Source: Patescibacteria group bacterium | GTDB lineage: Bacteria; Patescibacteriota; Patescibacteriia; XYB2-FULL-38-15 | Direction of reading: 5' to 3' | DNA length: 64,000 nucleotides | Assembly: GCA_041650995.1 (NCBI GenBank) | Contig: JBAZJZ010000001.1 | Location: forward strand, 363,302 to 427,301 | The notes under the pieces: model-generated | Seen by the model: the letters and a program-made list of their open reading frames with translations, nothing else | What the model was told of the DNA's origin: nothing | The model's database searches: none | Shown: positions 33,917 through 55,146 of the stretch, piece by piece | How positions within the stretch are numbered: the first letter of the stretch is position 1 | Layout of the letters: each line of letters begins with the position of its first letter | Position numbers and translations under genes: made by a program

Positions 33917-33955
33917 TAAAGTGTTGGTCGTTAGTTGTTAGTCGTAAGTTGTTAA

Positions 33956-35152: not shown

Positions 35153-35241
35153 AATATTTGATAAAAACAACCAATTACTTAATTACTACCAATTACTTAA
35201 TTACAACGAGGTAATTAGGTAATTGCTATTTTATTATTTTG

Positions 35242-35499
35242 CTATTTATCCCCCTCAATTTCTTCAAGTTCCCACGTGTCGGCTTTTATTTTTTTTACCA
35301 CCACCTCTGCGTTTTCCGCTTTTGTCCCACGCGCGAGCGTGCCGACGTTAAATTTCAAATTCTCCGGATTTATTTCCGAACCATGTTCAATCACGCTGCC
35401 AAGGCCAATGACAATTTTTGTCACCTTCTTCAATTTATTTTTCTCGGCATGATCCAAAACTAATTTTAAAATTCTATCTGCTTCATGTAAGTCGTGCAT
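35242..35499 (-). CDS. hypA: HypA-like Ni-insertion protein, N-terminal domain only (no zinc finger)
   Basis: MHDLHEAD N-terminal MHE Ni-binding motif; 85 aa; no CxxC pairs. Confidence 0.45.
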   Translation of the reverse strand: MHDLHEADRILKLVLDHAEKNKLKKVTKIVIGLGSVIEHGSEINPENLKFNVGTLARGTKAENAEVVVKKIKADTWELEEIEGDK

Positions 35500-35536
35500 A
35501 CAATAAATTACGTATTAATAAATTTAAAGTAACAAT

Positions 35537-36802
35537 TTAATGCGTCGCGCAAGTCATGCAAGGATCATAAGCGCGGACCATCATATTTATTTTCCATCTT
35601 CTGTCTCGTTCATCTTTAATGTCTGCCTCATTCAAATATTTTTCTAAATCATTTTCCAAATTGTCCAAAAACTGCGCTGTTGGCGTGACAATATTGCAAG
35701 CGCGAACAATGCCGTATTTATCAATTTTATAATAATGATAAAGCGTGCCTCGCGGCGCCTCGGTCGCGGCCAAACCTTCAGAATTTTTTAAAGTATGTTT
35801 CACCATTAAAATTCTTGATTTCTCACGCAAATATTCTTTAAGTAGTTTTCTAACTTCTTCAACGCAATGGACGAGTTCCACGGCCTGCGCGTAAATATTA
35901 TGGAAAGTGTTGTAAGTCAAAATTTTTCCTGATGGCTTGTCAAAAAAAGTTAAAAATTTTTTTGCTTCGGGATTCAAATAGCGATGGCTCAAATTCAATC
36001 GCGCAATCGCGCCAGGCATAAAACTTTTTCCAAGATGGCGCGCGCGTTTTGTCGGATCACCGCTTGTTTGCTTCTCCACAATTTCTTTATAAAATTTTTT
36101 CACCGGACGGGACGATTGCACAGTTGATCCAATTATCCCATCATAAAACGGATATTCCCGCGGCGCGACAAGCCCAGTGTATTCCGTTTTCCTCTCATAT
36201 TTTGGATAGTCAAGCGCCCGAAAAAATTTTGCCGCGCCAATCGCCGCTTCAAGTACCGACTCGGTTTCGTCAATTAATCCTCTAATAATTTTATCATCAA
36301 GCACTCTTCTAAATCCGCCGATCTCCGTCACAATCAAATGCATATCCCGGCCGCCGACCACATCTTTAATTTTATTCCCAAAATCTCGAATTAAAATAAT
36401 TTTTTGGGCGAGGTTTGGATATTTTTTTATTAAATCAACATCGCTTTCATATTTAAAAAAATCCCCGAGCGATAAAAAGAAAAGATGCGCCGCGTGGCTT
36501 TGAATCGGCTCGGCAAGGACCAAAACTTTTCGGAGCCGCTCAATCTGCGGATTAATTTTCACGCCAAGAGCGTTTTCAATCGCTTTAATGCTTGTGATAT
36601 TATGCGCCACCGAACATATTCCACAAATGCGCGAAGTAACAATCGGCGTCTCAATATAATTTCGATTTAAAATTATTGATTCAATCAATCGCGCGCCAAT
36701 CGTAACTTTCATTTTAGCGTTTTTAATGTCGCCAGCGAGCATGTCGGCAAAAAAACTGGCGTGACCTTCAATTTTCGCGAGATGGCTTATTTTTATTTTC
36801 AT
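35537..36802 (-). CDS. NiFe hydrogenase large (alpha) subunit, group-3-like
   Basis: RICGICSVAH N-terminal and DPCMTCATH C-terminal NiFe ligand motifs. Confidence 0.85.
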   Translation of the reverse strand: MKIKISHLAKIEGHASFFADMLAGDIKNAKMKVTIGARLIESIILNRNYIETPIVTSRICGICSVAHNITSIKAIENALGVKINPQIERLRKVLVLAEPIQSHAAHLFFLSLGDFFKYESDVDLIKKYPNLAQKIILIRDFGNKIKDVVGGRDMHLIVTEIGGFRRVLDDKIIRGLIDETESVLEAAIGAAKFFRALDYPKYERKTEYTGLVAPREYPFYDGIIGSTVQSSRPVKKFYKEIVEKQTSGDPTKRARHLGKSFMPGAIARLNLSHRYLNPEAKKFLTFFDKPSGKILTYNTFHNIYAQAVELVHCVEEVRKLLKEYLREKSRILMVKHTLKNSEGLAATEAPRGTLYHYYKIDKYGIVRACNIVTPTAQFLDNLENDLEKYLNEADIKDERDRRWKINMMVRAYDPCMTCATH

Positions 36803-36828
36803 ATTTTCTTATATTTACTGATTAGACA

Positions 36829-37014
36829 ATTATATCAAAAAATTAAAATTAAAACAAAGCCCCCGAGTGATGCCCGGAGTGACACGCTTTAGCGTGTTAC
36901 TTACCGAAATAACAGCCTAAAGGCTGTCAGTCCGATTTATTAAAAATAAAAAAATGCCCCGTTCCATTTCTTCGGCTTTGTGAAAGCTTCAGATTTGAAA
37001 CGGGGCCAAGAGAC
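36829..37014. repeat. conserved structured flank, copy 1 (G5 terminator hairpins plus outward TGATATAAT promoter)
   Basis: about 80% identical to 56973-57176; three hairpins; extended -10 on the minus strand at 36837-36829. Confidence 0.7.
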
Positions 37015-37080
37015 CGAAAGTCCAAGGATCCGAGTGACCCGGCCTTTTTGAAGGGCCGAGTTACCCAGGATCCAAGGACC

Positions 37081-37542
37081 CTACTTGCGACGGAGCACCC
37101 GGAAGCCGCCGCCCCAGTCGTAGCCGAGCCAGCGCCAGTCCTGGCACCAGCCGTCGTCGTGCCAGCGGACGCACGCCACGAGCCCGCGGTCGACCGGGAA
37201 CCGCCAGTCCGGGAAGACGAAGACGACCTTGCCGCGGAGAGCGGCAGGGACCTCGTCCTGGTGGGCGAGGAGGAACTCGCAGTCCTCCTTGCCGAGGTTG
37301 GCGCCGAGCCTCTCGGCGCGGGCGACCATCACGCGGCCGACCACCGAGGTCTCGCCCTCCCAGAGGAAGGAGAGGATCTCGTAGGTGCGGCCGCCGATGG
37401 TCATCTCGGTGGGGAGGGAGGACTTGACGAGCGTCTCGGCGAACTCCCGCACCGCCTCGGTGTTGTCCGAGGAGACGAGTGCCGAGAACAGTTCGTCGCC
37501 GATCTCGCGCTGCAGATGGGCCGTAGAACGCAGAGTATCCAT
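37081..37542 (-). CDS. G5: GC-rich cassette protein, paralog of G8 (153 aa)
   Basis: shared block LPTEMT.GGRTYEILSFL...LGKEDCEF.LAHQDE.PAALRGK.VFVFPD with G8. Confidence 0.55.
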   Translation of the reverse strand: MDTLRSTAHLQREIGDELFSALVSSDNTEAVREFAETLVKSSLPTEMTIGGRTYEILSFLWEGETSVVGRVMVARAERLGANLGKEDCEFLLAHQDEVPAALRGKVVFVFPDWRFPVDRGLVACVRWHDDGWCQDWRWLGYDWGGGFRVLRRK

Positions 37543-37784
37543 TGCCGTTTCCTTTTGCCTCCTCTTTCGAGAAAGCGCACTCCTCGCCGACCTGGCAAAG
37601 AGGAAGCGCCGGTTTCCCAGCCTTCTTTCCAAATTTTATTATTCTTCGAGCGGAACGGAGCGAAGTCGAGAAGCGGTTCTCGACACCCCGCCGAATTGGC
37701 GGGTTGCTCGAACAATAAAATAGAGAAAGAAAACCGGGAAATTAACCAAAATTTCGCTTAAAAAGAACTATTTACTAACAATTA

Positions 37785-37813
37785 AATATACCATATTTTA
37801 ATGGTTTTGTCAA
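37785..37813 (-). promoter_or_regulatory. G5 promoter (GGGGTTGACAAAA-17-TATATT), followed by about 230-nt structured leader
   Basis: minus-strand TTGACA at 37813-37808, TATATT at 37790-37785. Confidence 0.5.
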
Positions 37814-37827
37814 CCCCATTTTTCTAT

Positions 37828-37888
37828 GTCATTCCCGCGAAAGCGAGAATCCAGATTACTGGATCCCCGGGTCAAGCCCGAGGATGAC
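37828..37888. mobile_element. MITE-like double-hairpin repeat, copy A
   Basis: GTCATTCCCGCGAAAGCGAGAATCCAG-ATTA-CTGGATCCCCGGGTCAAGCCCGAGGATGAC; terminal inverted repeats GTCAT(T/C)CCC / GGGGATGAC. Confidence 0.65.
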
Positions 37889-37894
37889 AAAATA

Positions 37895-37925
37895 AAAACC
37901 CGACTTTCGTCGGGACTCCGCCTTT
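37895..37925 (-). terminator. terminator after hydrogenase small subunit
   Basis: cccgacgaaagtcggg followed by a T-run on the minus strand. Confidence 0.5.
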
Positions 37926-37942
37926 AAAATCAAATAAAAAAA

Positions 37943-38710
37943 TTATTTTTCAATTCTCAAAAAATCATCCTCCGCGCCATAGGTTTGCATAATTTCCCGG
38001 AGATATTTTTTTCCGACTAATTTCTGAATATTTTTCAAATGTTTTTTAATTTGCGGTCCGGCTCCGGGAAGCGGTCCGCGGCAACCATAACAAAATCTTT
38101 TACTGCGCAAACATATTGCTTTGCATCCGCCAAGAGTGATCGGCCCCATGCATGGCTCCCCTTTTTGCAAAAGACACTCATAACCTTGAGCCTGACACTC
38201 GAAGCACACCGGTCTTTGAGGAATTCTTGGCTCCCGTCCAAAAATAATATCTGAAATAACTCGATAAAATTCATCTTGATCAATCGGGCAGCCTGGAACA
38301 GTGTAATCAACTTTTACCACCTTAGAGAGCGGCACAACTCTGGAATTTTGAATGCGCTGATATTTTGGATAGACGTATTTGACCTTTTCGTTTTTCAATT
38401 GCTCTGAATAATTTTTTATCTCCTGAACTCCGCCCAAATGAGCGCAACTGCCGATGGCCACCAAAATTTTTGATTTTTTTCTCAACTCCTTTAAATATTT
38501 TATGTCTTCCTTGGTAAGCGGCGTCCCTTCAATCACGGCCACGTCATAACTCGGACGCTCCCGTTTTTCTTCCGCCCAAGAAAAATTTCCCAAATCAAAA
38601 ACCTGAAAAAGATCCAATAATCTTTTTCCCAAATTTAGGATTTCCACCTGGCAACCCTCACAACAAGTCATACTGGCAATGGCAAGTGTCGGCTTCGGCA
38701 TATGTTTCAT
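37943..38710 (-). CDS. NiFe hydrogenase small (delta) subunit
   Basis: N-terminal CCEGC cluster motif and further Cys clusters. Confidence 0.8.
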   Translation of the reverse strand: MKHMPKPTLAIASMTCCEGCQVEILNLGKRLLDLFQVFDLGNFSWAEEKRERPSYDVAVIEGTPLTKEDIKYLKELRKKSKILVAIGSCAHLGGVQEIKNYSEQLKNEKVKYVYPKYQRIQNSRVVPLSKVVKVDYTVPGCPIDQDEFYRVISDIIFGREPRIPQRPVCFECQAQGYECLLQKGEPCMGPITLGGCKAICLRSKRFCYGCRGPLPGAGPQIKKHLKNIQKLVGKKYLREIMQTYGAEDDFLRIEK

Positions 38711-38844
38711 TATAGCACTTTTTAAAGGGTATGAAAAACTGTATAATTTAATCAGGATTATGGCCTGAGCCTGTCGAAGGCCAACTTATCAATAGCACCC
38801 CCTTCGACTTCGCTACGCTTCGCTCAGGGAATAAATGGATATAT

Positions 38845-39486
38845 ATGATATTCAAAAATCGCGTGGAAGCTGGCCAAAAATTAGCCGAAACGCTCAAAAA
38901 ATTTAAAGACGCCCAAGGCACGCTTATTTTAGCGCTTCCCCGCGGCGGGGTTGTTGTCGGTTTTGAAGTAGCAAAAACCTTAAGCTTGCCGATGGATATT
39001 ATTGTCCCGCGAAAAATCGGCGCCCCGGGAAATCCGGAATTTGCCATTGGCGCGATTACCGAACAGGGCGTTGGAATTTTTGACGAGATGGTAATTGGCA
39101 CTTACGGAATAACCGAATCGTATTTACAAAATGAAATAAAAAAAGAAAAAGCCGAGGCGGAACGGCGGTTGAAATTATACCGCGGGACTCGTCCGCCACT
39201 AGATTTAAAAAATAAAACGGTCATTATTGTTGATGACGGATTAGCAACCGGAATGACAATGCGCGCGGCCATTAAGACGGCCAAAAAACTCAGAGCGGAA
39301 AAGATTATTGTCGCAATCCCCGTTACCTCGCCCGAAGCGGCAGAATTAGTTAAAAAAGAAGTTGATGAAATAATTTATCTTGAAGCTCCGGCATTTTTCG
39401 GCGCTGTTGGATCTTTTTACGAAGAATTCGGACAAACAACAGATGAGGAAGTAATAGATTTGTTAAAAAAATCGGAAAATTTTTAA
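38845..39486 (+). CDS. phosphoribosyltransferase-family protein
   Basis: PRPP-binding VIIVDDGLATGMT motif. Confidence 0.7.
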   Translation: MIFKNRVEAGQKLAETLKKFKDAQGTLILALPRGGVVVGFEVAKTLSLPMDIIVPRKIGAPGNPEFAIGAITEQGVGIFDEMVIGTYGITESYLQNEIKKEKAEAERRLKLYRGTRPPLDLKNKTVIIVDDGLATGMTMRAAIKTAKKLRAEKIIVAIPVTSPEAAELVKKEVDEIIYLEAPAFFGAVGSFYEEFGQTTDEEVIDLLKKSENF

Positions 39487-39588
39487 AAATAAAAAACCAC
39501 CTCGCCATATCAGTCGTTCAGGCTCGCGCAATGACAAAAAAACAAAACTCCGCCAACCAGCGGAGTTTTAAAATCTATTTTATTAAAT

Positions 39589-40308
39589 TTATAAATACTT
39601 TAACGTCCTCCCAGTCCAATATTCAAGCCGTTGCGCCGTTTCCCTTGAAATAATTTCGACCGCTCTACCCCAATGGTAAGAAACCGTATCCCCAGCTTTA
39701 ACTCGCGGAAGAATCAACGGGTCGCGTTTTATTTCTATCAATTTTTCCTTGCCGATTTTTGGTAAATATTTACCCCGTAATTTTATAAGCGTTTTTGCGC
39801 GTATAACAAGCGCGTCACCCTTAATCAACTTTACTTTTCCCCACCCGATACGGCAAAGTTCTTGGCCAATCGTACCGCGTTCTACCCTGCCGGTAATGCT
39901 ACCAACCACAAAAACGTGAAAGCTATGGTGCGGCCTATGCCTTTTATGAACCCGCGAAGCAATCTTCTCGGCCGCGGCAGCAGTCATTCGTCCTTGATTA
40001 GCAAAACTGCGTACAAGATCAGCTAAATCCTTAGAGCTAACATTTTCTAATAAATTATTTCCAATCCAATAAGCATCAAATACTCGCGGATCAAACCAAT
40101 CGGCGATTTTATTGCTCTCGGCGATAAGTTTAAGATAGGGAGCTAGGGCAATAAATTCTCGAAGAATTTTTTTTAGCTGTGCGTCACTGACTTTATCTGT
40201 CGTCAAATATCGATAAAGTTTCCCCTTCCCTGCTCCCTGCGGCCCGCAAAGACCAAGCTCGTGTGGATGCAGGGAATATTTAACTCCCCTTTTAAGATAT
40301 TTTTTCAT
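39589..40308 (-). CDS. hypothetical protein adjacent to hypC
   Basis: ORF; 4-nt overlap with hypC. Confidence 0.4.
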   Translation of the reverse strand: MKKYLKRGVKYSLHPHELGLCGPQGAGKGKLYRYLTTDKVSDAQLKKILREFIALAPYLKLIAESNKIADWFDPRVFDAYWIGNNLLENVSSKDLADLVRSFANQGRMTAAAAEKIASRVHKRHRPHHSFHVFVVGSITGRVERGTIGQELCRIGWGKVKLIKGDALVIRAKTLIKLRGKYLPKIGKEKLIEIKRDPLILPRVKAGDTVSYHWGRAVEIISRETAQRLEYWTGRTLKYL

Positions 40309-40541
40309 TTTTTAACCCCTCTATTTTTTATTTTTGAAGGCTCACGAAATAATGCCAAAAATTCCTTTGCTTCTGCTTCGGAAATTTTTTTAATCCCCAC
40401 ATCTCCCTGTACCAATATCCACTCTCCCTTCTTTGTCCCCGATAAAAGCGACGTATCAACATTAAAAACCTTGCCACCATTTTTTATGGTGGCCTTATTT
40501 TTAGAAATTTTTTCAATTTTACAGGGGATCCCAAAGCACAT
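40305..40541 (-). CDS. hypC: hydrogenase assembly chaperone HypC/HupF
   Basis: MCFGIP N-terminus (Cys2) typical of HypC; start taken at the internal Met. Confidence 0.65.
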   Translation of the reverse strand: MCFGIPCKIEKISKNKATIKNGGKVFNVDTSLLSGTKKGEWILVQGDVGIKKISEAEAKEFLALFREPSKIKNRGVKK

Positions 40542-40549
40542 AAAAAATC

Positions 40550-41461
40550 TCAAACCTTAAAACTCAAAACTTTTTCTTTTTTAAATTTTGACATCAAATC
40601 TACGACGACAATCACCCCCAAAAATATTATCAAGCTACCAAAGAAAATTTGCCAATCAAAAATTCCTTTCTGCGCCATTTCAAGTAAACTCGTTATCGGC
40701 GCGCCAAGCGCGAGAACGCAGGCCGCCGAAGAAACCGGGATATATTTTAAACCGGCATACCAGGTTAAAACATAGCCCAAGAGGAAAATCGCCGTTATCC
40801 AGACCCAACTTAACTCTGCCACGCTCATACTTCCGAGCAGTTTCATCTGCCCGGTCGCCGTCCAAAAAATAAAAATAAATAAAAATCCAAAAAACATTCT
40901 GCCCCAAGCAACAATTTTTGGAGAAATATTCTCCAATGCTTTTTTAGAAATAATTTGTTCTGCCGCCCAAAATAACGTAGCAACTAAAACTAAAAACTCA
41001 CCATACCCGAATTGTAATCCATTAAAAATTTTCAAAAGAAATATGTTGCCCAAAAGAAGCAATGAAGCACCAATCACTAAATTTTTACTTACTTTTTCTT
41101 TCAAAACTAACACCGCTAAAACAATTACATAAATAAATAAAGTTTTATGGATAAAAGATGTACTCGCCCCGCTTGTCGCGGCCAATCCCTTAAAAAAAAG
41201 TAAAAACGGAATACTGCCGCCAACCAAACCGATTAAAACCAACACCCCCCATTCTTTAATTTTCAATTTTGCCAACAACTTCCATTCCTTAAACCAAAAA
41301 ATTAAGCACAACAAAATTACGGCCACAACTATATTTTTCAAGCCGGTGAAAATATCTGAATTAATAACTTTAACACCGAATTGATTTATAAAAATAGAAA
41401 CGCCGGAAATTATTGCTGTTCCTAAAACTAACAAATATCCCTTCTTCTTATTAATGTTCAT
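40550..41461 (-). CDS. EamA/DMT-family transporter
   Basis: 10-TM, two EamA-like halves. Confidence 0.65.
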   Translation of the reverse strand: MNINKKKGYLLVLGTAIISGVSIFINQFGVKVINSDIFTGLKNIVVAVILLCLIFWFKEWKLLAKLKIKEWGVLVLIGLVGGSIPFLLFFKGLAATSGASTSFIHKTLFIYVIVLAVLVLKEKVSKNLVIGASLLLLGNIFLLKIFNGLQFGYGEFLVLVATLFWAAEQIISKKALENISPKIVAWGRMFFGFLFIFIFWTATGQMKLLGSMSVAELSWVWITAIFLLGYVLTWYAGLKYIPVSSAACVLALGAPITSLLEMAQKGIFDWQIFFGSLIIFLGVIVVVDLMSKFKKEKVLSFKV

Positions 41462-41476
41462 AATAGTTGTTTAATA

Positions 41477-43257: not shown

Positions 43258-43337
43258 ATTTTGAAATTATAGCATAAAATCGCTCGAAAATAAAAATGGG
43301 CTCACAACGTCCCAATCTTTCCACGCGAAAACATCTC

Positions 43338-44024
43338 TCACAAATCGTTTGTCGTCAGTCGTTTGTCGTCAGTCGTTTTCAACCATTTTTTATTCCATTT
43401 TTCCCAATTTTTAAAAATTAAAACACAACCAGCAAAAACTCCGAAGACATCAGCCACTAAATCATTTGCAACATCAATCGCGATCGGCTGGTTGGAATCA
43501 AAAAACATCTCTGTCCCCCACCAAATATCCCCTTGCTCCTGAAAAATTTCCCAAAAAAACGATAAAGCCAAAATCAAAATACTGCTAATCAAAATAACCT
43601 TCACTTTATCCGACACACCATTTTTTATTTTTAAAATTTCATAAAACATCGCCGCCATCACCACAAAAGCAGCCGGAATAATCATGTGGACAAGAAAATC
43701 ATATTCAAAAAATTTTATGTATTTATAAAAATATACAGTGCCGAGGGATGTCGTAAAAAAAATTAACCCGCCGATGCCCAACAAAGTTTCCCCGAAGGCC
43801 TCGGAATAATATTTTTTGACCCGACTTGATTTTGAAATTAAAAATAAAATAAATAAAGAAAAGGCTCCCAAGAGGAAAGTAGTAACTAAATAAAAATTTT
43901 CAAAATACCAATAAACCCCGGCCAAAACAAAAGCCGAAAAGAAAACCGACCAAAAAATAACTTTCATTGCGCGATAAAACATATTCAGAAACATCAAATT
44001 TATTTTATTATAGCACAAAAACAA
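43338..44024 (-). CDS. hypothetical polytopic membrane protein
   Basis: multiple TM helices. Confidence 0.35.
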   Translation of the reverse strand: MFLCYNKINLMFLNMFYRAMKVIFWSVFFSAFVLAGVYWYFENFYLVTTFLLGAFSLFILFLISKSSRVKKYYSEAFGETLLGIGGLIFFTTSLGTVYFYKYIKFFEYDFLVHMIIPAAFVVMAAMFYEILKIKNGVSDKVKVILISSILILALSFFWEIFQEQGDIWWGTEMFFDSNQPIAIDVANDLVADVFGVFAGCVLIFKNWEKWNKKWLKTTDDKRLTTNDL

Positions 44025-44063
44025 AAAGCCGGCCTTTTAGACCGACTTCTGTTTTACCTAAAT

Positions 44064-45077: not shown

Positions 45078-45108
45078 ATTACCTCCTAAATTTATTAATT
45101 TTAAAAAT

Positions 45109-45900
45109 TTATTTTTTAATAGGAACTTCAATAATCGTCCCCTCTTCTAATTTTACATCAACTGACTGTTTTAGGGTATGCCAACCGATTACTTTTCCCC
45201 GACCGTGGTCGGTCCGGACATTCGTACCGATGGGTGGAAGTTTTTTTGCCGCCTCCTCATAATTTTTTTGCTCATATGCCAGGCAGCACATCAGCCGGCC
45301 GCAAACGCCGGTTAAGCGATCCGATCCGCGATGAGCGATTTGCTGGAGATCGGCAAGATCGGAAGAAATATTTCCTAAATCTTTTTTAAATTTTTGGCAG
45401 CAAAGATGACGGCCACAAGCCCCGACATCACCGGAAATTTTTGCTTCATCGCGAATGCCCAATTGCTGAAGGCGAATTGATTTTTGAAAAGTTTTGGTTA
45501 AGTCTTTTACCAAATCGCGAAAATCAACTCGTCCATCGGCCACAAAAGCAAAAGTAAGACGCCCACCATCAAAAGAAAAATGGGCGTCGATTAATTTTAT
45601 CGGCAAATTATATTTTTTTATCAGCTGTTTGCAAGCCGCGAGCGCTTCTGTTTTTTGTTCTTCTTTCTCTTTTAATTTTGCCAAATCAGCCGTGCTGGCT
45701 TTTCTGAAAATCGGTTTGATCTCAAGTTTTGCCGTTTCAATTTCTTTCGCGTCAATTTCTTTTACACCGACTATTTTTCCCATTTCCACTCCAAGGTCAG
45801 TTTTAACTACCACAAAATCCCCTACCGGAAAATTTAATTCCCCGGCGTCAAAATCGTAAACTCTCCCCCAGGGCGTAAATTGAACTTCAACAATTTTCAT
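45109..45900 (-). CDS. PSP1/RicT (YaaT)-family protein
   Basis: PSP1 C-terminal-like region with Cys cluster. Confidence 0.55.
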
Positions 45901-45906
45901 GGCGAC

Positions 45907-46497
45907 TTATATTTGGAATCTTACAAATCTCTTCACCTCAATCTTCTCTCCGATTTTGGCTATTTTTTGATTTATCAATTCCTCAATCGTCACGTCTTCA
46001 TCTTTCACAAACGGCTGCCTTATAAGACAAACATCTTCAAAATATTTTTCTAATTTCCCTTCAAGAATTTTTTCCACCACTGCCGGCGGTTTTTCCTGCC
46101 CCTGAAGCTCTTCAAGATACATTTGTTTTTCCTTAGCAACAACTTCTTCCGGCACATCTTCCGGTTTTACGTATAAAGGATTTGTCGCCGCGACTTGCAT
46201 CGCGATATCATGAACCAATGCCTGAAATTCTTCTGTGCGCGCCACAAAATCGGTTTCGCAACTTATTTCAACCATTGCTCCGACTTTGCCGTTCGCATGG
46301 ACATAGGCGTGAATCAAACCTTCTTTAGTTTCGCGCTCAGCTGATTTTTTCGCGGCTTTTATTTCACCTTTTTTTCTTAAAATTTCAATTGCCTTTTCAA
46401 TGTCTCCGTCTGCTTCATCCAGGGCATTTTTACACTCAACAATCCCTGCGCCAGTCCGTTCACGGAGTTGAACTACGAGTTTTGAATCGATTGCCAT
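45907..46497 (-). CDS. tsf: elongation factor Ts
   Basis: UBA-like N-terminus [16 protein letters not shown]. Confidence 0.85.
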
Positions 46498-46507
46498 ATT
46501 TTTGAAA

Positions 46508-46586
46508 GTAACGGGTAACGCGTAACGGGTAACGCGTACAAGCGTATCAAAAATTACCAATTACTAATTACCAATTACCAATTACT
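46508..46586. repeat. tandem heptanucleotide repeats (GTAACGS)x4 and (CAATTAC)x4-5 filling the tsf-rpsB spacer
   Basis: direct reading of gtaacgggtaacgcgtaacgggtaacgc and attaccaattactaattaccaattaccaattact. Confidence 0.8.
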
Positions 46587-47379
46587 CCGATAAATTATTT
46601 TTTTCTTCCTTCACCTCTTCTGCTTTTGCTTCTTCCTCTTCCACAACGACCGGGGCTGCCGGTTTTTCCGGAGCCGCACCTCTTTTTGCTTCAAACTCCG
46701 CCTTCCCTTCTTTCACGGCCGCGGCCACGAGCCCAACCATCATTTCAATTGCTTTTACCGCGTCGTCGTTTGAGGGAACCGGATAATCAACGTCATCCGG
46801 ATTGATATTTGTGTCACATAACGCGACAACCGGAACCTTTCTTTTTCTCGCTTCAGCCACCGCGGTTTTTTCCGCTTTGACATCAACGACAAAAATCGCT
46901 TCAGGCAATTTTTTTAAAGTTTCAATGCCGCCAACCAATTCTTCCAACTTCACGATTTCTTTTTGAAAATTCAGCTGCTCTTTTTTGGTGTATTTCGCGA
47001 GTCCGCCGGTCGCTGTCTTATTTTTCAAATCAGTGAAGCGGTCCGTTACGGTTTTGATGGTTTTGAAATTCGTGAAAGTTCCTCCGAGCCAACGTGTCGT
47101 GACATAAGGCATGCCGGCATCTTTCGCGTAGCGTTTCACAATTTCTTTGGCCTGCTCTTTTGATCCAACAAAAAGAACAACTCCGCCCGCGGCTGTTGTT
47201 TTTTTAATAAAATCTAGCGCCTCTTTTAATTTTTTTGCCGTTTCTTCTAAGTTGATGATGTGGATATCGCTCCGCTCTCCGAAAATATACGGCTTCATTT
47301 TCGGATGCCATTTAGAAGCCTTGTGCCCAAAATGAACACCGGCCTGGAGCATTTCCAACATTGTTGGGATCTCTGACAT
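46582..47379 (-). CDS. rpsB: 30S ribosomal protein S2 (acidic C-terminal extension)
   Basis: LEAGVHFGH motif; start at MSEIPT. Confidence 0.9.
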   Translation of the reverse strand: MSEIPTMLEMLQAGVHFGHKASKWHPKMKPYIFGERSDIHIINLEETAKKLKEALDFIKKTTAAGGVVLFVGSKEQAKEIVKRYAKDAGMPYVTTRWLGGTFTNFKTIKTVTDRFTDLKNKTATGGLAKYTKKEQLNFQKEIVKLEELVGGIETLKKLPEAIFVVDVKAEKTAVAEARKRKVPVVALCDTNINPDDVDYPVPSNDDAVKAIEMMVGLVAAAVKEGKAEFEAKRGAAPEKPAAPVVVEEEEAKAEEVKEEKNNLSE

Positions 47380-47581
47380 AAGTTTTCCTTTTCGCCTCTG
47401 TTTTGCCAAAACTTGCGGGTCCCGCCAGGGCGGGATCAGGAACAAGTTTTTAAGAGCAAAACATGTGGGATTATTTAAATTTAAGATTTTAGATTGTAGA
47501 TTGTAGATTTAAAACAAAAATCCATAACCCATAATCTATAATCCATTCTCGCACAAAACTAAAAATCGCGCAAGGGTTTAA

Positions 47582-47633
47582 TAAAAAAACGCCCTGCCGA
47601 GCCAAGCGTCGAAACACTTGACCTCGGCAGGGC
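47582..47633 (-). terminator. G6 terminator
   Basis: gccctgccgag...ctcggcagggc stem; T-run on the minus strand. Confidence 0.55.
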
Positions 47634-47639
47634 TGAAGG

Positions 47640-48332
47640 TCAGGGCCCGTCGTGACCGTAGACCCTGAAGCGCTCACCGGTCTCCGGCCGTTCGTAGGCC
47701 AGATACCAGGAGACGCCCACGCTGAGCGGATCCTCGCCCGGACGACGTGAACGTGTCGCGTCCACCTCACCGAGCATCAGATCCGTCGGTCGGACCTCCT
47801 CCTTGCGACGCGACGGGAGAAGGAGAATCTCCTCGCGCTTGAGTGCGGTCGGCAGCATGGGTGAGGTGTAGTAGAAGTCGCCCTGGGCCGTCACGTAGAT
47901 CTTGAGCGGCCAGAGCGACTCGCCGCCGTCGTGCGTCCGCAGAACCTTGATCTTGCGAACCAGGTGATCGGTCGGCTGAACCTGATCCATCGGACGGCCC
48001 GGCCGCGGACAGAGTCTGTCCCACTCATCGTCCGAGAGAGGGACATCACAGAAGAAGTTCGGGCAGACACCCAGGATAAGCGGACTGCCGCAGTTCCTAC
48101 AGCGTTCCGGCGTACCACCACAGGTGTGCAGCATCACGCCCCCGCCGATGACGATCTGGCTGGCCTGACACTGAACGTACCGAGCCACCTTGACCACTCG
48201 TACGAAGGGCTCCACGCACTCATTGCCGTAGATGCTGTTCTGGAACAGCACCCGGGCGTAGTGGGCCATGACGCGCCTCTCGGCCGCGAAGCAGCCGACG
48301 CAGATCTCGTTCTGGCTCATCTTCTCCTCCAT
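47640..48332 (-). CDS. G6: GC-rich cassette protein, Cys-rich (multiple CxxC zinc-ribbon-like pairs), 230 aa
   Basis: CVGC..C..C, CGGTPERCRNCG, CPNFFC; high GC at third codon position. Confidence 0.5.
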   Translation of the reverse strand: MEEKMSQNEICVGCFAAERRVMAHYARVLFQNSIYGNECVEPFVRVVKVARYVQCQASQIVIGGGVMLHTCGGTPERCRNCGSPLILGVCPNFFCDVPLSDDEWDRLCPRPGRPMDQVQPTDHLVRKIKVLRTHDGGESLWPLKIYVTAQGDFYYTSPMLPTALKREEILLLPSRRKEEVRPTDLMLGEVDATRSRRPGEDPLSVGVSWYLAYERPETGERFRVYGHDGP

Positions 48333-48380
48333 CCTCTGGCTGTTCCTCAGCCAAGGTCCAAGTCCATCTTGGAACTTATA

Positions 48381-48409
48381 AAAATATCACAGAAAATTAT
48401 TTTTGTCAA
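48381..48409 (-). promoter_or_regulatory. G6 promoter (GGGGTTGACAAAA-17-TATTTT)
   Basis: minus-strand TTGACA at 48409-48404. Confidence 0.4.
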
Positions 48410-48549
48410 CCCCGTAGTGAAATTTCGGATCTCCGCCCGAAGGCGGAAAAAAATATTTTAATTTTAGAAATATTTTAATTAGAAACACTGTTCCCTTGCT
48501 TGCTTAAACCAATTTTACCATTCCGAAATTCTACTACGGGGCAACCCCC
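48410..48549. repeat. 20-bp inverted repeats (ccccgtagtgaaatttcgga / tccgaaattctactacgggg) flanking a hairpin, overlapping the G6 promoter
   Basis: 18/20 complementary arms at 48410-48429 and 48522-48541. Confidence 0.6.
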
Positions 48550-48598
48550 TAATTAACCCTTGCTTTTTTAACGTATTTTTGCTAAATTAAATACACAA

Positions 48599-49033
48599 TT
48601 GTTCATCAAAAATATGAACCCGCTACAAACGGAAAAATCAAACGACAAAATCTGGAGGCAACTTTCCAATCTCTGGACTTTCGCAGCCATGGGATTTTTC
48701 ATGTTTGATTTTTTCACGAACGATAAATACAGCGGATACGCCGCGGCGATCTCAATTATTTACATTTCTATTCTCGGCCTTTACGCCGGAACCAAAGAAT
48801 TTGACCGCTGGCAAGATTCTCATTTTTCAAAACGCAAAGGCGAATTATTTGTTATTCTCTGGACAATTTTAATTTTTTTCTTTATCATTACCGCGATTGT
48901 CTCCGGCGGAAAATACAAAATGCCATCGGAATTCACGGCGACCTACATCGCGCTTTTATCCATTTTCGCCTTGACACAAAGGTCTAAATTCCTGCATAAT
49001 CAAAAAGAGAAAGATATTAATCAAAAACAATAA
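48599..49033 (+). CDS. hypothetical membrane protein
   Basis: four TM helices. Confidence 0.4.
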   Translation: MFIKNMNPLQTEKSNDKIWRQLSNLWTFAAMGFFMFDFFTNDKYSGYAAAISIIYISILGLYAGTKEFDRWQDSHFSKRKGELFVILWTILIFFFIITAIVSGGKYKMPSEFTATYIALLSIFALTQRSKFLHNQKEKDINQKQ

Positions 49034-49042
49034 TCAATAATT

Positions 49043-49300
49043 ATGAAAAAAGACATCCACCCTGAATATTATCCAAAAGCAAAAGTAACCTGCGCCTGCG
49101 GCAATGCTTTTACTGTTGGCTCAACCGTGAAAGAAATTAAAGTTGAGTTGTGTTCTGCCTGCCATCCGTTCTACACCGGCAAACAGAAACTTGTTGACTC
49201 AGCGAGACGCGTAGAAAAATTCAAAGAAAAAATGGAAAAAAAGGCGGCTATTTCCGCGACGAAAAAAGAAAAGAAGCCGAGAGCGAAAAAAACCAAGTAG
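49043..49300 (+). CDS. rpmE: 50S ribosomal protein L31
   Basis: MKKDIHPEY...C.C...C..C...FYTGKQ. Confidence 0.85.
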
Positions 49301-49376
49301 CTATTCCAATCATAAAAAACATGGTAACGTTTTTGTTATCATGTTTTTATGTTAGAATAAACTAATAATTTAATTT

Positions 49377-50414
49377 ATGATTCCTGAAATCACTAAAACC
49401 GAAGAAAGATTTAAGGAACTCGAGGCCGAACTTGCCCGCCCCGAGGTGGTTTCCAATCCGGAAAAATTAAAAACCGTTTCCCGAGAATACAGTGACTTAA
49501 AAGAAGTTATGGAAAAAATAAATAAATTTCATAAATTGAAAAAGGCCGAATTGGAAACAGAGGTTATCGCCAAACAGGACGTCGACGAGATGGCGGCCAT
49601 CGCTAAAGAAGAATTAGAAAAAATTCGGCGGGAAAAATCAACGCTTGAAACGGAAATTAAAGAAGAATTAACGCCGAAAGATCCGCTGGACAAAAGAAAT
49701 ATTATCGTGGAAATTCGGGCCGGCGCCGGCGGCGATGAAGCCGCTCTTTTTGCCGCGCAATTATTCAGAATGTATTCGCGCTTCGCCGAGCGCAAAGGCT
49801 GGCAGACAAAATTGATTTCCGCAAACCGGACAGACCTCGGCGGATTCAAAGAAATTATTTTTTCAGTTGAGGGAAAAGGCGCTTGGGGAAATTTAAAATT
49901 TGAAAGCGGCGTGCACCGCGTTCAGCGCGTTCCGGAAACGGAAAAAAGCGGACGAGTCCATACTTCAACCGCCTCTGTCGCCGTTCTTCCAGAAGCCGAA
50001 GAAATTGATATAAAAATTGAACCAAAAGATTTAAGAATTGATACGTTTTTATCCGGCGGCCACGGCGGTCAAAGCGTGCAGACAACTTATTCGGCCGTGC
50101 GTATTACTCATATTCCGACCGGTCTTGTTGTCGCCTGCCAAGACGAACGCTCACAGGCGCAAAATAAAGAAAAAGCCATGCAGGTTTTGCGTTCCCGGCT
50201 TTTTGTAATGGAGCAGGAAAAACGGCAAGCGGCGGAAGTCGCGGCGCGACGTTCGCAAATCGGTTCGGCCATGCGGGCGGAAAAAATCAGAACATATAAT
50301 TTTCCCCAGGACCGCGTTTCCGATCATCGCGTTAAAGAAAGCTGGCACAATATTAATAATGTTATGGATGGCGAACTGGATCAAATTATTGAAGTGTTGA
50401 AAAAGGAAGTGTAA
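49377..50414 (+). CDS. prfA: peptide chain release factor 1
   Basis: GGQ motif; RVQRVPETE (PxT-type, RF1-like); followed by prmC. Confidence 0.8.
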
Positions 50415-50437
50415 AAAATAATAAATATAATAAAAAA

Positions 50438-50462
50438 ACCGGCCGCAAGGCCGGTTTTTTGT
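50438..50462 (+). terminator. prfA terminator
   Basis: accggccgcaaggccggt followed by a T-run. Confidence 0.65.
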
Positions 50463-50469
50463 ATAGAAC

Positions 50470-50547
50470 TTGACAAATTAATCTTTTTATAATATTCTAA
50501 AAACATCAAACAGGGTGGCCTTTCGTTTTTGGCGCGCGCCGAAAACG
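50470..50547 (+). promoter_or_regulatory. G7 promoter (TTGACAAAT.. with TATAAT/TATTCT) and leader hairpin cgtttttggcgcgcgccgaaaacg
   Basis: -35 at 50470-50475; perfect palindrome at 50524-50547. Confidence 0.4.
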
Positions 50548-50622
50548 TGAAGGAAGGTGGCCCTAAATCTCGGCCCGACGGACGGGACGAGTTAAAATAG
50601 GGAAGGTTGAGGAGGATAGGGA

Positions 50623-50832
50623 ATGTTGAATCCGATTTGGGTCGACGGAATACGCCTCGTCGACGACAATGGCCAACCGCTTTGGGCGGATCGTGGCCCC
50701 ATCGAAATTTCGTCGAGGCGACCGCATCAGCCCGGTGGCGAAGGGAATGACGACATGTTCTTCCCGGACGACGAAGAAGCGGCCAGGCGGCGAAGCGACG
50801 CCCGGAAGAGAGACCGTCGGCGCCAGCAGTAG
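50623..50832 (+). CDS. G7: GC-rich small cassette protein (69 aa), acidic then Arg-rich tail
   Basis: GAGGAGGATAGGGA-ATG Shine-Dalgarno; followed by about 150 nt GC-rich untranslated region and a terminator. Confidence 0.4.
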   Translation: MLNPIWVDGIRLVDDNGQPLWADRGPIEISSRRPHQPGGEGNDDMFFPDDEEAARRRSDARKRDRRRQQ

Positions 50833-50987
50833 TATCCCGTCCCACCATCAACGTGAGAGCTGCGAGCTTCGCTCGCCCACTCTCCGTTTCAAGTTCGCGC
50901 CCCCCCTCCCGGAAGCGGCGCGAAGCCCGCGTAGCGGAAAACGGGGAACACGAGTTCCCCGCCCCCCCCTCCTCGCTACCGGGCCCC

Positions 50988-51050
50988 AGCCCGTGGATTG
51001 TTTTGGAGAGATCTCCCCTCCTTCAAGCAGTCCACGGGCTCCTTTTTTTA
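50988..51050 (+). terminator. G7 terminator
   Basis: agcccgtgga...tccacgggct stem followed by a T-run. Confidence 0.5.
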
Positions 51051-51065
51051 TGCTACAATAATCGC

Positions 51066-51950
51066 ATGACAATAAAACAATCTCTCATTTTGGCGACAAA
51101 AATTTTACAAAAAAATAAACTATCCTCCCCTGCTCTGGACGCCGAAGTCCTCCTATCTTTTGTTATAAAAAAACAAAAAGAATTTTTGTACGCACATTCT
51201 GAAAAAAAATTAACCGCGGCGCAATTTTTAAAATTTAAAAAACTGATCGCCCGGCGTTCTAAACATGAGCCTATCGCCTACATCATTGACCACAAATTTT
51301 TCTACGGCCTGAATTTTTTTGTTGATAAAAATGTTTTAATCCCCCGCCCGGAAACGGAAACACTAGTTGAAACTGTAATCGATAAAAATCCAACTGCAGT
51401 CGTTGACGTGGGAACCGGCAGCGGCGTTATTGCCATCTCACTCGCTTATCATCTACCCAAAACGAAAATTTTTGCCACGGAAATTTCGCCGTCCGCGGCC
51501 AAAATTGCGCAAAAAAATATTCTTCATCATAAAGTCACCATTACTTTGCTTCGCGGAAATCTTCTTGAACCTTTTTTAAAAAATTTAAAATCAAAAATAA
51601 AAAACTTAAAATCTTTAATCGTTGTCGCCAATCTCCCCTATCTCAAAACTCGTCAATGGAAAAAAACTCTGCCAGAAATAAAAAAATATGAGCCACGGCA
51701 AGCTCTGGACGGCGGTGAAGATGGTTTGAATTATTACCGCGAACTTTTACAGCAAATCGAATTACTAATTACCGATTACCAATTACCAATTACTTCAATC
51801 TTCGAAATTGATCCATCTCAAAAAAAAACCATTGCGAAATTGGTCAACTGCCGCTTCCCTGCCGCGAAAATTGAAATAAAAAAAGACCTCGCCGGCCGAG
51901 ATCGGGTTGTTATATTTAAAATAAATCCCAAAAAACAATCAATTACTTAA
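51066..51950 (+). CDS. prmC: release factor glutamine methyltransferase PrmC/HemK
   Basis: VGTGSG SAM motif, NLPY (NPPY-type) motif, C-terminal DLAGRDRV; start at MTIKQ after the G7 terminator. Confidence 0.75.
   Translation: MTIKQSLILATKILQKNKLSSPALDAEVLLSFVIKKQKEFLYAHSEKKLTAAQFLKFKKLIARRSKHEPIAYIIDHKFFYGLNFFVDKNVLIPRPETETLVETVIDKNPTAVVDVGTGSGVIAISLAYHLPKTKIFATEISPSAAKIAQKNILHHKVTITLLRGNLLEPFLKNLKSKIKNLKSLIVVANLPYLKTRQWKKTLPEIKKYEPRQALDGGEDGLNYYRELLQQIELLITDYQLPITSIFEIDPSQKKTIAKLVNCRFPAAKIEIKKDLAGRDRVVIFKINPKKQSIT
51759..51793 (+). repeat. five tandem heptamers (NAATTAC) inside the prmC coding sequence
   Basis: gaattac taattac cgattac caattac caattac. Confidence 0.8.
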
Positions 51951-52007
51951 TTACTATTTACCAATTACTGAAATCTGCAAATGGTAATTAGTAACTGGTA
52001 ATTACGG
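51939..52007. repeat. CAATTAC/GTAATTA heptamer repeats arranged as an inverted repeat in the convergent spacer
   Basis: caattacttaattac...tggtaattagtaactggtaattac. Confidence 0.7.
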
Positions 52008-55002: not shown

Positions 55003-55146
55003 AAAATAAAAAATCCAAATGTCAAAATCCAAATACCAAATCAAGCCCAAAATCCAAAAATTTAGTCATTTGGATTTGATTTGACATTTGAGCTTTGGGT
55101 TTTGGATTTTAAATAACAAAGACAGTAAAAAATCACTTAAAAACTA

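Follow-up and report, generated by a model that had tools for sequence, protein, structure and literature searches.

The window analysed here, a 64,000-nucleotide stretch of Patescibacteria DNA, carries short tandem arrays of seven-nucleotide units in the spacers between housekeeping genes, which raises the question of whether these arrays depart from chance and, if so, what they are. The arrays are real and far from random: TRF returns 8 period-7 arrays in the window, whereas 200 block-wise dinucleotide shuffles of the window gave a mean of 0.17 and a maximum of 2, and no other period from 4 to 12 exceeded 1 array. A second, independent run-scoring scan found 3 strong runs at period 7 and 0 at periods 4-6 and 8-12. 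The arrays comprise 3-5 units and are imperfect (73-92% matches in TRF). The AATTAC hexamer shows no overall enrichment in the window (61 occurrences, compared with 49 +/- 7 in shuffles), its occurrences being clustered at four sites. Close relatives (Ca. Falkowbacteria, Patescibacteria) have 37 period-7 arrays in 236 kb and at most 4 of any other period, i.e. 15.7 arrays per 100 kb compared with 2.0 in 1.87 Mb of unrelated bacteria used as controls. Heptanucleotide arrays of this kind form a population that spans Ca. Falkowbacteria, a group of uncultured ultrasmall bacteria. The interpretation in the initial annotation is partly supported. Its six arrays are all present and, as it held, non-random, but it missed two, at 55010-55110 (ftsW) and 58244-58285 (gyrB); the link it saw with ribosomal and glycolytic genes is incidental, since arrays also adjoin ftsW, gyrB, hypA, prmC and a DUF3048 gene in the window, with EamA, prs and PSP1 genes among the neighbours in relatives.

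In the close relatives, 31 of the 37 arrays are intergenic, where intergenic sequence makes up 12% of the total (p = 5e-23). Most are paired, the two arrays of one spacer being reverse complements that form the arms of one hairpin; complementary pairs number 11 in the close set versus 2 in the controls. This inverted arrangement had been noted at two loci, whereas fold tests reveal that it applies to most arrays, such that the spacer transcript would be able to fold into a long imperfect stem-loop. The hairpins have 15-40 bp with approximately one mismatch per 7 nt (about 6 paired bases per heptad), begin at the upstream stop codon, end about 1-20 nt short of the next start codon, and have significant folds (z from -2 to -8). 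The start codons downstream of them mostly lack a Shine-Dalgarno sequence, the core of which precedes only 15 of 70 genes. Elsewhere, the window also has canonical terminators, G+C-rich and with T-tracts, which are a class apart from the heptad hairpins.

Several sites in the window illustrate this architecture. On the minus strand, site A (33888-33955) lies between the pgk stop codon and a SIMPL/DUF541 gene; its period-7 array (33922-33954, 4.7 copies in TRF; AACRACT on the transcribed strand, GTTAGTY on the plus strand) forms with a degenerate downstream arm a hairpin ending 7 nt before the ATG at 33880 (fold of 33872-33960, minus strand, -20.7 kcal/mol, z = -3.66). Between hypA and pgk, site B (35172-35226, minus strand; TRF array 35170-35226) is an AATTAC/GTAATT hairpin composed of 8/18-nt AATTAC units and an inverted GTAATT arm. 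Read on the transcribed strand, two units make up its 5' arm and four its 3' side (an 18-nt unit x1.9), giving two alternative pairing registers, an ambiguity also implied by the low frequency of the MFE structure (z = -2.05); a U-rich tail follows, with the pgk ATG (35152) 19 nt downstream. Site E (47474-47546, minus strand) comprises TAGATTG and ATAAYCY arrays, which form a hairpin approximately 100 nt upstream of the rpsB ATG (47379) by pairing AUGGAUU-type with AAUCUAC-type units in six- to seven-pair segments split by single mismatches (fold of 47420-47560, z = -3.5). It is flanked by a promoter-like TTGCGC-N17-GAGAAT and a conserved rpsB leader, and the rpsB mRNA would carry it at its 5' end. 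Site G (51939-52007), an AATTAC/GTAATT hairpin with z = -3.6 and -3.7 for the two strands, occupies the convergent junction of prmC (plus strand) and the DUF3048 gene (minus strand), the prmC stop codon falling within its first units; in L001 this junction has an ordinary G+C-rich hairpin instead. The longest hairpin, of about 40 pairs, is site H (55010-55110, minus strand), in the spacer that separates ftsW/rodA from an unannotated gene. Its stem joins AAANNUC-type heptads to UUGGAUU/UUUGAC-type units (-34.1 kcal/mol, z = -4.6), and UUUUUUAUUUU and the ftsW ATG (55002) come next; the corresponding spacer of L001 has a heptad hairpin of different sequence (AAARRUC/UUUUGAC, z = -4.6). At site I (58244-58285, plus strand), (TTTGAGY)x3.3 pairs with an upstream GCTCAAAA arm, ending 9 nt before the ATG (58295) of gyrB, a gene identified by its domains (z = -3.5). 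Two arrays lack such folds. Site C (43345-43378, minus strand), previously taken for a spacer array, is a direct 14-mer (x2.4, 100% matches) of alternating GTCGTCA and GTCGTTT heptads within the final codons of a long ORF called as DUF2238, for which no partner arm was found and the fold is not significant (z = +0.31); a weak (AATTCNT)x4.6 array in a coding region (24266-24297) gives no fold signal (z about +1).

The most informative hairpin is that between rpsB and tsf (site D, 46508-46586, minus strand), with arrays at 46508-46538 (GTAACGS x4.4) and 46552-46585 (AATTACC x4.9). Its transcribed strand runs from the rpsB stop codon (46582-46584) through (GGTAATT)x5, a 15-nt loop, (SCGTTAC)x4 and UUUCAAAAAU to the tsf ATG (46497); the fold is -23.8 kcal/mol in the sense and -19.1 in the antisense direction, with z = -3.87 for the whole spacer. 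The hairpin is kept in five species (the window, L086, L088, L001 and L092), with a consensus structure of 27 pairs. The latter includes U.G<->C.G changes, C<->U changes having occurred in each of four heptads with the pair kept as U.G on the transcribed strand only; the arms of the window lineage pair only through G.U, and hence are no longer a DNA-level inverted repeat. More widely, a hairpin fills 12 of 13 informative Falkowbacteria rpsB-tsf spacers, with arm sequences that depend on the sub-lineage (GTAATTR/YCGTTAC, GAATYAW/TTRATTC, an 8-nt ATGRTAAC version and a non-periodic version). The 5' arm has 3-5 units depending on species. The loop and 3' arm before tsf are of equal length in all near relatives compared, i.e. 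L086, L088 and the three cluster-mate proteins P0125, P0127 and P0128 (the last of which appears to be the L086 lineage); the sole difference in L001 and L092 is an extra hairpin within the loop.

The reading that we favour, at about even confidence, is that these are slippage-built, partly dispersed intergenic stem-loops that are kept through action at the RNA level. Replication slippage of 7-nt units would account for the origin of the units and for changes in their number, with homogenisation within an array. At least one family, TTTGA-(GTAAYNN)n-loop-(NNRTTAC)n-TCAAA, may then have spread to different spacers as a palindromic element of about 90 nt, and the copies that persist would do so because the hairpin acts on RNA as an intercistronic stem-loop, setting how the mRNA is processed, how stable it is or how accessible the next start codon is. 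The stem-loops probably act at the RNA level; however, sense and antisense folding energies, compared over roughly independent hairpins, favoured each strand about equally (about 5:5), a result that does not demonstrate RNA-level action in general.

It may instead be that a lineage-specific slippage bias, perhaps with reduced repair, fills tolerant spacers with functionless arrays and quasi-palindromes, a proposal that we consider unlikely despite several observations in its favour. Several hairpins turn over rapidly between close relatives. L001 and L085 lack sites E and B, the site E position in both being occupied by approximately 35 non-repeat nucleotides between conserved flanks and the site B spacer in L001 being 12 nt. 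Even between L094 and L096, which are 92% identical, the same spacer holds a heptad hairpin in one and a direct TAATCTA array in the other. The L002/L085 lineage, the closest by Tsf identity, has no period-7 array in 11-19 kb, and a degenerate prmC array, implying that many copies may be dispensable. AT-rich heptad repeats of arbitrary sequence are also frequent in viral contigs, and heptamers are the most abundant class of long simple sequence repeat in many prokaryotes, with polymerase slippage as the proposed cause (Mrazek 2007, cited through PMC4679880). Evidence against a purely neutral origin comes from the rpsB-tsf spacer, in which the arms are 88-100% identical in four species (the window, L086, L088 and L001) while four-fold sites of tsf, at 47-60%, are near saturation, although dispersed copies may have homogenised one another, in which case purifying selection would not account for all of this identity. 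Judged from the alignment, the loop and linker seem about equally well preserved; moreover, the C<->U changes preserve pairing, and the same spacer keeps a hairpin across sub-lineages despite unrelated arm sequences.

Dispersal raises the alternative of mobile palindromes, similar to REP or MITE elements, that would persist between genes by mobility and not by benefit to the host, which we regard as distinctly improbable. Homologous palindromic copies of about 90 nt do occur in other spacers of relatives: copies alignable with the rpsB-tsf element, with terminal TTTGA/TCAAA, lie in the tsf-PSP1 spacer of L092 and L093 and in the spacer that separates prs from a PRTase gene in L089, making three loci across genomes, two of them in L092. 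Their orientation relative to transcription is not fixed, and RTTAC/GTAAY arrays number 18 in the 236 kb of relatives versus 2 in the 1.87 Mb of controls. Against this, comparison of empty and filled sites revealed no target-site duplication, no transposase was found in support of mobility, and the copy between rpsB and tsf has kept its position across five species; the unit sequences of many hairpins are unrelated, which argues that there is no single element.

Proteins that bind consecutive short DNA units are known: the omega repressor of pSM19035 binds WATCACW heptads and MetJ binds 8-bp metboxes. The 7-bp register, the mixture of direct and inverted units, the recurrence of RTTAC-type units at several loci and the GTTAC heptads adjoining regulator-like genes in some phage contigs would all be consistent with operator arrays for a ribbon-helix-helix-type protein. 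We nonetheless think this very unlikely. Loops of 6-50 nt separate the arms and an extra hairpin in the loop is tolerated, which speaks more for a folded hairpin than for a contiguous operator array; many unit sequences are unrelated, the majority of sites separate co-transcribed cistrons instead of occupying promoters, and the G.U-paired arms of the window lineage are not inverted repeats at the DNA level.

The array inside prmC (site F, 51759-51793, plus strand; (NAATTAC)x5, AATTACC x4.9 at 51760-51793 in TRF) bears on the initial annotation's further proposal, that slippage by one unit would frameshift PrmC. The array is, as annotated, in frame and a genuine coding segment conserved across the clade: it encodes ELLITDYQLPITS, straight after the conserved DGLxYYR helix, and the sequence match to solved PrmC structures ends at residue 223, just before it. 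At these codons, the heptad periodicity is shared by L001, L091 and L092 (YCGTTAC/CCATTAC units), whereas the segment is degenerate in L085, reduced to two units in L096 (-21 nt) and without the array in Magasanikbacteria L007. Length differs only in 21-nt steps (3 units), with many point substitutions, and no homologue has a frame-breaking change of +/-1 unit. Unit changes at prmC and in the 3-5-unit rpsB-tsf 5' arm fit slippage as such, but slipped-strand phase variation, in which unit gain or loss switches or tunes neighbouring genes, is extremely improbable: despite a unit length that is not a multiple of three, the differing 5' arm copy number between species and the precedent of variable promoter/5'-UTR heptanucleotide repeats in Haemophilus, the arrays are short, imperfect and adjoin housekeeping genes, the rpsB-tsf loop and 3' arm hold their length in near relatives other than for the loop insertion, and no repeat-number heterogeneity is seen among the close strains available, the arrays of the 97.8% identical assemblies L094 and L095 being identical.

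The Falkowbacteria arrays join known intergenic heptanucleotide repeats, i.e. the Xanthomonas GGGAATC pairs and the cyanobacterial and Beggiatoaceae heptamers. According to Rehm et al. (2015, PMC4692102), the GGGAATC heptamers of Xanthomonas (and GGGGAYT of Nostoc) show a strong excess in intergenic DNA (89-93%), near neighbouring ORFs and mostly between co-oriented genes, and 70-75 cases of two convergent arrays form an inverted repeat capable of a stem-loop. Their G-rich units adopt G-quadruplexes, and a single unit prevails across the genome. The intergenic heptamer excess and the capacity of some array pairs to form stem-loops are shared; Falkowbacteria, however, have A+T-rich units that belong to several unrelated families, hairpin pairing is the rule rather than a property of a subset, and the complete element of one hairpin family is found again at other loci. 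TAACTGA direct repeats, in marine Beggiatoaceae and some Cyanobacteria and Bacteroidetes, form sets of 2-6 intergenic heptamers, most a few nucleotides upstream of start codons, although some overlap ORF ends or fall inside ORFs; ribosomal-protein genes are among those associated with them, Shine-Dalgarno sequences are rare in this gene set, and a post-transcriptional role has been proposed (MacGregor 2015, PMC4679880). Those sets are likewise short and close to start codons where Shine-Dalgarno sequences are rare, but are almost all direct repeats of one unit, chosen such that the RNA stays unfolded (169 direct sets versus 1 inverted; PMC4679880), whereas the Falkowbacteria arrays are mostly hairpin-paired, with many different units. 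The long simple sequence repeats of prokaryotes with an excess of heptanucleotides (Mrazek et al. 2007) and the STRR heptamers of cyanobacteria (Mazel et al. 1990), both cited through PMC4679880 and PMC4692102, are similar in that period 7 stands out, the arrays are non-coding, their taxonomic spread is sporadic and slippage is proposed. Falkowbacteria add to these the hairpin architecture and one strongly conserved copy; the literature searched held no Patescibacteria case of such repeats. REP/BIME and similar small dispersed palindromes are thought to act as mRNA stem-loops, and are comparable as imperfect palindromes in operon intergenic spacers with related copies at different loci, but the Falkowbacteria arms are internally periodic heptads. 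The heptanucleotide contingency repeats of Haemophilus influenzae, in promoters or 5'-UTRs, are long, perfect, hypervariable between isolates and control surface proteins; they share 7-nt units upstream of genes with the Falkowbacteria tracts, which are short, imperfect and stable, and adjoin housekeeping genes. The Falkowbacteria arrays are best placed as one lineage's version of a wider bacterial pattern, the known and still unexplained over-representation of 7-base repeats.

Seven-nucleotide periodicity is markedly over-represented in the window, with TRF reporting eight period-7 arrays compared with a mean of 0.17 and a maximum of two in 200 block-wise dinucleotide shuffles, and no more than a single array for any other period from 4 to 12. 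A run-scoring scan yielded three strong runs, all of period 7, and zero at other periods. The arrays listed in the initial annotation (33917-33955, 35172-35226, 43345-43378, 46508-46586, 47480-47545, 51759-51793 and 51939-52007) are all present, but the list was incomplete, omitting those before ftsW (55010-55110) and gyrB (58244-58285). At least five unrelated unit families (GTAAY/RTTAC, GATT/AATC, AAANNTC, TTTGAGY and AACRACT) coexist within 64 kb, with further ones in relatives, and no single dominant genome-wide unit underlies the window arrays; AATTAC hexamers, clustered at four sites, show no overall enrichment (61 occurrences versus 49 +/- 7 in shuffles).

The EF-Ts encoded in the window has its nearest named relatives in Candidatus Falkowbacteria (Patescibacteria/CPR), and the loci around tsf in these close relatives (L001, L002 and L085-L097; 73-93% Tsf identity, 236 kb) contain 37 period-7 arrays, i.e. 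15.7 per 100 kb, with at most four arrays of any other period. The corresponding value is 2.0 per 100 kb for control loci from ~1.9 Mb (1.87 Mb) of unrelated bacteria, which were obtained by a Tsf-based contig search and have identities of at most 64% among the matches listed. Arrays of at least three RTTAC/GTAAY units number 18 in the 236 kb of relatives versus two in the 1.87 Mb of controls, and complementary array pairs 11 versus two; zero period-7 arrays were found in the L002 and L085 loci scanned. A random distribution of the arrays was not seen, with 31 of the 37 in relatives being intergenic, a fraction that makes up 12% of the sequence (p = 5e-23). Complementary heptad-array hairpins are present in two control loci, from Nitrospira lenta (L028, 6275-6336) and, immediately downstream of tsf, from the Omnitrophota (L041, 10586-10657); the architecture is thus not unique to Falkowbacteria, only much denser there, and may be widespread at low density. 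The matches of (GTAATTN)3 to viral contigs, at least 120, carry nothing specific, because two composition-matched control heptads are likewise abundant among the matches listed, and 26 (GTTACNC)-type viral matches are unrelated repeats that lack the hairpin element. In one viral contig (L188, IMG/VR 3300045988_182923, ~6111-6129) a (CGTTACT)n array runs straight into (TGTTAGT)n, these being the unit types of the rpsB-tsf and pgk/SIMPL-DUF541 spacers of the window, which may reflect either coincidence or a mutational relationship of the units.

In most spacers the two differing arrays are mutually reverse-complementary, and RNA folding predicts long imperfect hairpins in the pgk/SIMPL-DUF541 (site A), hypA/pgk (B) and rpsB-tsf (D) spacers, upstream of rpsB (E), at the prmC/DUF3048 junction (G) and upstream of ftsW/rodA (H) and gyrB (I), with z-scores of -2 to -4.6 and helices composed of ~six-pair segments with one mismatch per heptad. 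The folds of the arrays in the tail of the DUF2238 ORF (site C, 43345-43378) and inside prmC (site F) are not significant. Each hairpin fills its spacer, starting at or a few nt from the upstream stop codon (at site D the rpsB stop codon lies inside the first unit) and ending 7-19 nt ahead of the downstream ATG, with an A/U-rich linker between, e.g. UUUCAAAAAU-AUG; a 4-nt Shine-Dalgarno core is found upstream of only 15 of 70 genes. The neighbouring genes (pgk, hypA, NiFe-hydrogenase subunits, gap, a PSP1-domain gene, tsf, rpsB, rpmE, prfA, prmC, a DUF3048 gene, rplY, ftsW/rodA and gyrB) are all ordinary housekeeping genes. Rfam 15 gave zero matches at E <= 1 at the arrays (33000-59000), and an intrinsic terminator scan called none of the heptad hairpins, which do not combine a G+C-rich stem with a T-tract; canonical terminators of that kind are present elsewhere in the window. 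U-rich tails follow the hairpins at sites H, B and I, where partial attenuation may occur. The proportion of array bases that pair in MFE folds is no discriminator, the counts being 30 of 37 for relatives and 23 of 38 for controls.

We consider it about an even bet that these structures are slippage-built and partly spread hairpins that persist as intercistronic RNA stem-loops. Slippage of 7-nt units, together with homogenisation within arrays, would build and retune the arms, and quasi-palindromic cores (GTWAC, GAWTC and GTTAAC) would render direct and inverted arrays nearly interchangeable, such that hairpins arise easily; some hairpins would then spread into other spacers. Those that persist would affect RNA processing, stability or access to the nearby Shine-Dalgarno-less start, with the 25-40 bp imperfect duplex making an RNase III-type substrate a natural candidate.

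The rpsB-tsf spacer carries a spacer-filling hairpin in 12 of 13 informative Falkowbacteria, with z-scores of -1.8 to -5.6; that of L090, which is 24 nt long, has none. The arms consist of GTAATTR/YCGTTAC heptads in the window, L086, L088, L001 and L092, of GAATYAW/TTRATTC heptads in L094-L096, and of 8-nt units (ATGRTAAC x4 / GTTATCAT) in L093 (1508-1592), implying that the periodic-arm architecture is not strictly bound to 7 nt. They are largely non-periodic in L085, L087 and L091, all scored; the L085 spacer sequence recurs in L002 and L003, both outside the scored set. Members of the GTAATTR/YCGTTAC group range over 3-5 units in the 5' arm and hardly vary in the 3' arm and linker, and the loop accommodates an inserted ~50-nt G+C-rich hairpin in L001 and L092. 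An alignment that includes copies at other loci, with 27 base pairs in total, reveals a C/U difference in each of four heptads that leaves the pair as C-G or U.G, a relationship that holds on the transcribed strand only and suggests action at the RNA level at site D; for the hairpins in general this is not established, the comparison of sense and antisense folding energies over roughly independent hairpins being split ~5:5.

That the arrays are purely neutral slippage debris is unlikely, though it is the rival reading to which we give most weight. There is rapid turnover at some sites: of L094 and L096, which are 92% identical, one has a perfect GTATCTG/AAATACT hairpin in a spacer where the other has three direct TAATCTA units, and sites E and B are missing in L001 and L085 despite conserved flanks. 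Against neutrality, the site D arms are 88-100% identical among the window, L086, L088 and L001 compared with 47-60% at four-fold sites of tsf, a difference that is hard to reconcile with neutral drift of this spacer. The rpsB-tsf and ftsW-upstream spacers are occupied in relatives, with varying length and sequence; the L001 counterpart of site H is a heptad hairpin of different sequence in the same place.

The arrays also carry a warning for annotation, in that gene callers stretch ORFs through them. The heptads of the site D type are stop-free in all frames, and tsf is over-called upstream through the array to 212-217 residues instead of 196 (the window ORF at 45907-46560, with 217, and P0001, P0003, P0005 and P0032); the open frame is therefore no evidence for a longer Tsf, and we rejected the 21-residue N-terminal extension as genuine, with the conserved N terminus beginning at the ATG at 46497. 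Similarly over-extended calls are seen for the DUF2238 ORF (43338-44024) and prmC (GTG-start ORF at 50853). Upstream of rpsB we observed a conserved leader, CACATGTTTTGC...TCCTGATCC-hairpin-GACCCGCAAGTTTTGGCAAAACAGAGG, in the window (47380-47470) and at orthologous positions in L001, L085, L086, L091 and L092; it has zero Rfam matches at E <= 1 and may represent the S2 autoregulatory leader in a version particular to this lineage. The sole Rfam match in the window at the gathering threshold is an L10 leader (RF00557; 9701-9836, minus strand, 62.7 bits).

On sequence comparison, the site D hairpins look like a dispersed REP-like family of the form TTTGA-(GTAAYNN)n-GTAATTTTTGA...TTGTAC-(NNRTTAC)n-TCAAA. 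Copies aligning over the full ~90 nt are located in the tsf/PSP1 spacer of L092 and L093 (the window spacer there being 6 nt) and, reversed relative to transcription, in the phosphoribosyltransferase/prs spacer of L089, which brings the loci with related copies to three over all genomes, and to two within L092, in the 20-64 kb sampled per genome. No target-site duplications were found on comparing filled with empty tsf-PSP1 and rpsB-tsf spacers. A purely selfish palindromic element is an improbable explanation. It is more improbable again that the arrays are DNA operators of the omega/MetJ type: the operators of ribbon-helix-helix proteins such as omega (pSM19035) consist of contiguous 7-bp units, direct and inverted, at promoters, whereas the arms here lie 6-50 nt apart and tolerate loop insertions, and most sites are intercistronic.

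Several other repeats accompany these hairpins. In L001 complementary arrays (ACAATTA x4.4, 15140-15170; GTTAACT x4.4, 16073-16103) bracket an EamA gene at ~900 nt from each other, and with a unit containing the palindrome GTTAAC each could self-fold as well. Small G+C-rich hairpins of the CCCCTCC...GGAGGGG type seem to insert into existing structures, namely the rpsB-tsf hairpin loop of L001 (9953-10003) and L092 and, as a 21-nt palindrome, the prmC array of L092; similar motifs occur in window spacers at 970-1291 and 57790-58270. A segment of ~0.55-0.7 kb is duplicated in the window (36867-37416 and 57028-57606, 85-96% identical), comprising an ORF without a Pfam match (37081-37632 and 57265-57789, minus strand) and, upstream of it, conserved sequence rich in hairpins. 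A ~70-nt palindromic element, TGTCATTCCCGCGAAAGCGGGAATCCAG...CTGGATCCCCGGG...GATGACA, is present in four copies in long spacers (37820-37889, 57182-57251, ~58087-58160 and, inverted, 63721-63780), often directly after a TTGTCAACCCC motif, and seems to represent a dispersed repeat family of its own.

The array inside prmC (51759-51793) is in frame and translated, as had been annotated; the frameshift predicted from a change of one unit is, however, seen in no homologue compared. Its five NAATTAC units encode ELLITDYQLPITS, immediately after the conserved DGLxYYR helix, where similarity to solved PrmC structures stops. The prmC codons of relatives are heptad-periodic with lineage-typical units, (YCGTTAC)x4-5 in L091 and CGTTACC/CATTACT in L001; the array is degenerate in L085, reduced to two units (-21 nt) in L096, and has an in-frame 21-nt G+C-rich palindrome inside it in L092. 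A recent insertion was considered and discarded, since outgroup PrmC proteins hold a segment of similar length at this position, which in Magasanikbacteria is non-repetitive. The comparisons imply that the array is old, translated and constrained to three-unit steps. As its catalytic motif IV, PrmC has NLPY in place of the canonical NPPY in both the window (51090-51947) and L001 (4251-5135).

Repeat number is stable among the near relatives compared. The loop and 3' arm before tsf are of equal length in L086, L088 and the proteins P0125, P0127 and P0128, cluster-mates of the window Tsf in one 90% cluster that have been called as ORFs extending across the array; in P0125 (MFA5128786.1), which comes from another assembly of this species, the translated loop and 3' arm are identical. 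The sole length difference here among the close lineages compared is the loop insertions of L001 and L092, the arrays of L094 and L095 (97.8% identical assemblies) are the same, prmC homologues change only in 21-nt steps, and no repeat-number heterogeneity was found among strains. We accordingly give almost no credence to the slipped-strand phase variation proposed initially, given that the tracts are short and imperfect (3-5 units, 73-92% matches) compared with the long, perfect or near-perfect tracts of contingency loci, and that they adjoin rpsB, tsf, pgk, ftsW, gyrB and prmC, rather than surface, host-interaction or restriction-modification genes.

Beyond the reading of slippage-built hairpins persisting as RNA stem-loops, a broader proposal would be that self-propagating heptad-armed stem-loops are general intercistronic regulators, read by a putative protein in a 7-nt register or cut by RNase III, in Falkowbacteria and perhaps also in other Shine-Dalgarno-poor uncultured lineages; we regard this as doubtful. 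Were it true, a hairpin could grow, shrink and retune by slippage and arm-to-arm homogenisation while its fold is kept, and units could move into coding regions 21 nt at a time, as in prmC.

That bacterial spacers contain an excess of 7-nt tandem repeats was recognised in 1990-2007, and no function for it is generally accepted. The present work adds a case from Patescibacteria, which have tiny genomes and short spacers and in which junk sequence should be costly; no paper in the literature searched pairs Patescibacteria with heptamer repeats. A heptad hairpin conserved far beyond synonymous sites provides some of the clearer support at sequence level for selection on at least some such repeats. 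Testable targets are the hairpin between rpsB and tsf, the family of copies homologous to it, and the coding array that moves in 21-nt steps.

According to Mrazek (2007), as related in PMC4679880, heptanucleotides are the commonest class of long simple sequence repeats in many prokaryotes, with slippage as the proposed origin. The GGGAATC repeats of Xanthomonas are 89-93% intergenic, conserved in location and variable in length, with convergent pairs able to form stem-loops in 70-75 cases (PMC4692102); the TAACTGA repeats of Beggiatoaceae lie just upstream of Shine-Dalgarno-less starts, including those of ribosomal-protein operons (PMC4679880); and a Nostoc preprint describes contiguous heptamers near start codons with regulatory effects. 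The Falkowbacteria arrays share with the Mrazek-type, Xanthomonas, Nostoc and Beggiatoaceae heptamers a period-7 excess, a spacer location near ORF ends and the occupation of one spacer in related species with differing length and sequence, and thus belong to that class as a new member. They differ in having several coexisting unit families, whereas the published cases each have one dominant unit, a trait of those cases rather than part of the definition of the Mrazek class. They differ further in that their units are A+T-rich, that pairing into hairpins is the rule, and that one family recurs as an entire element, of which one copy is strongly conserved.
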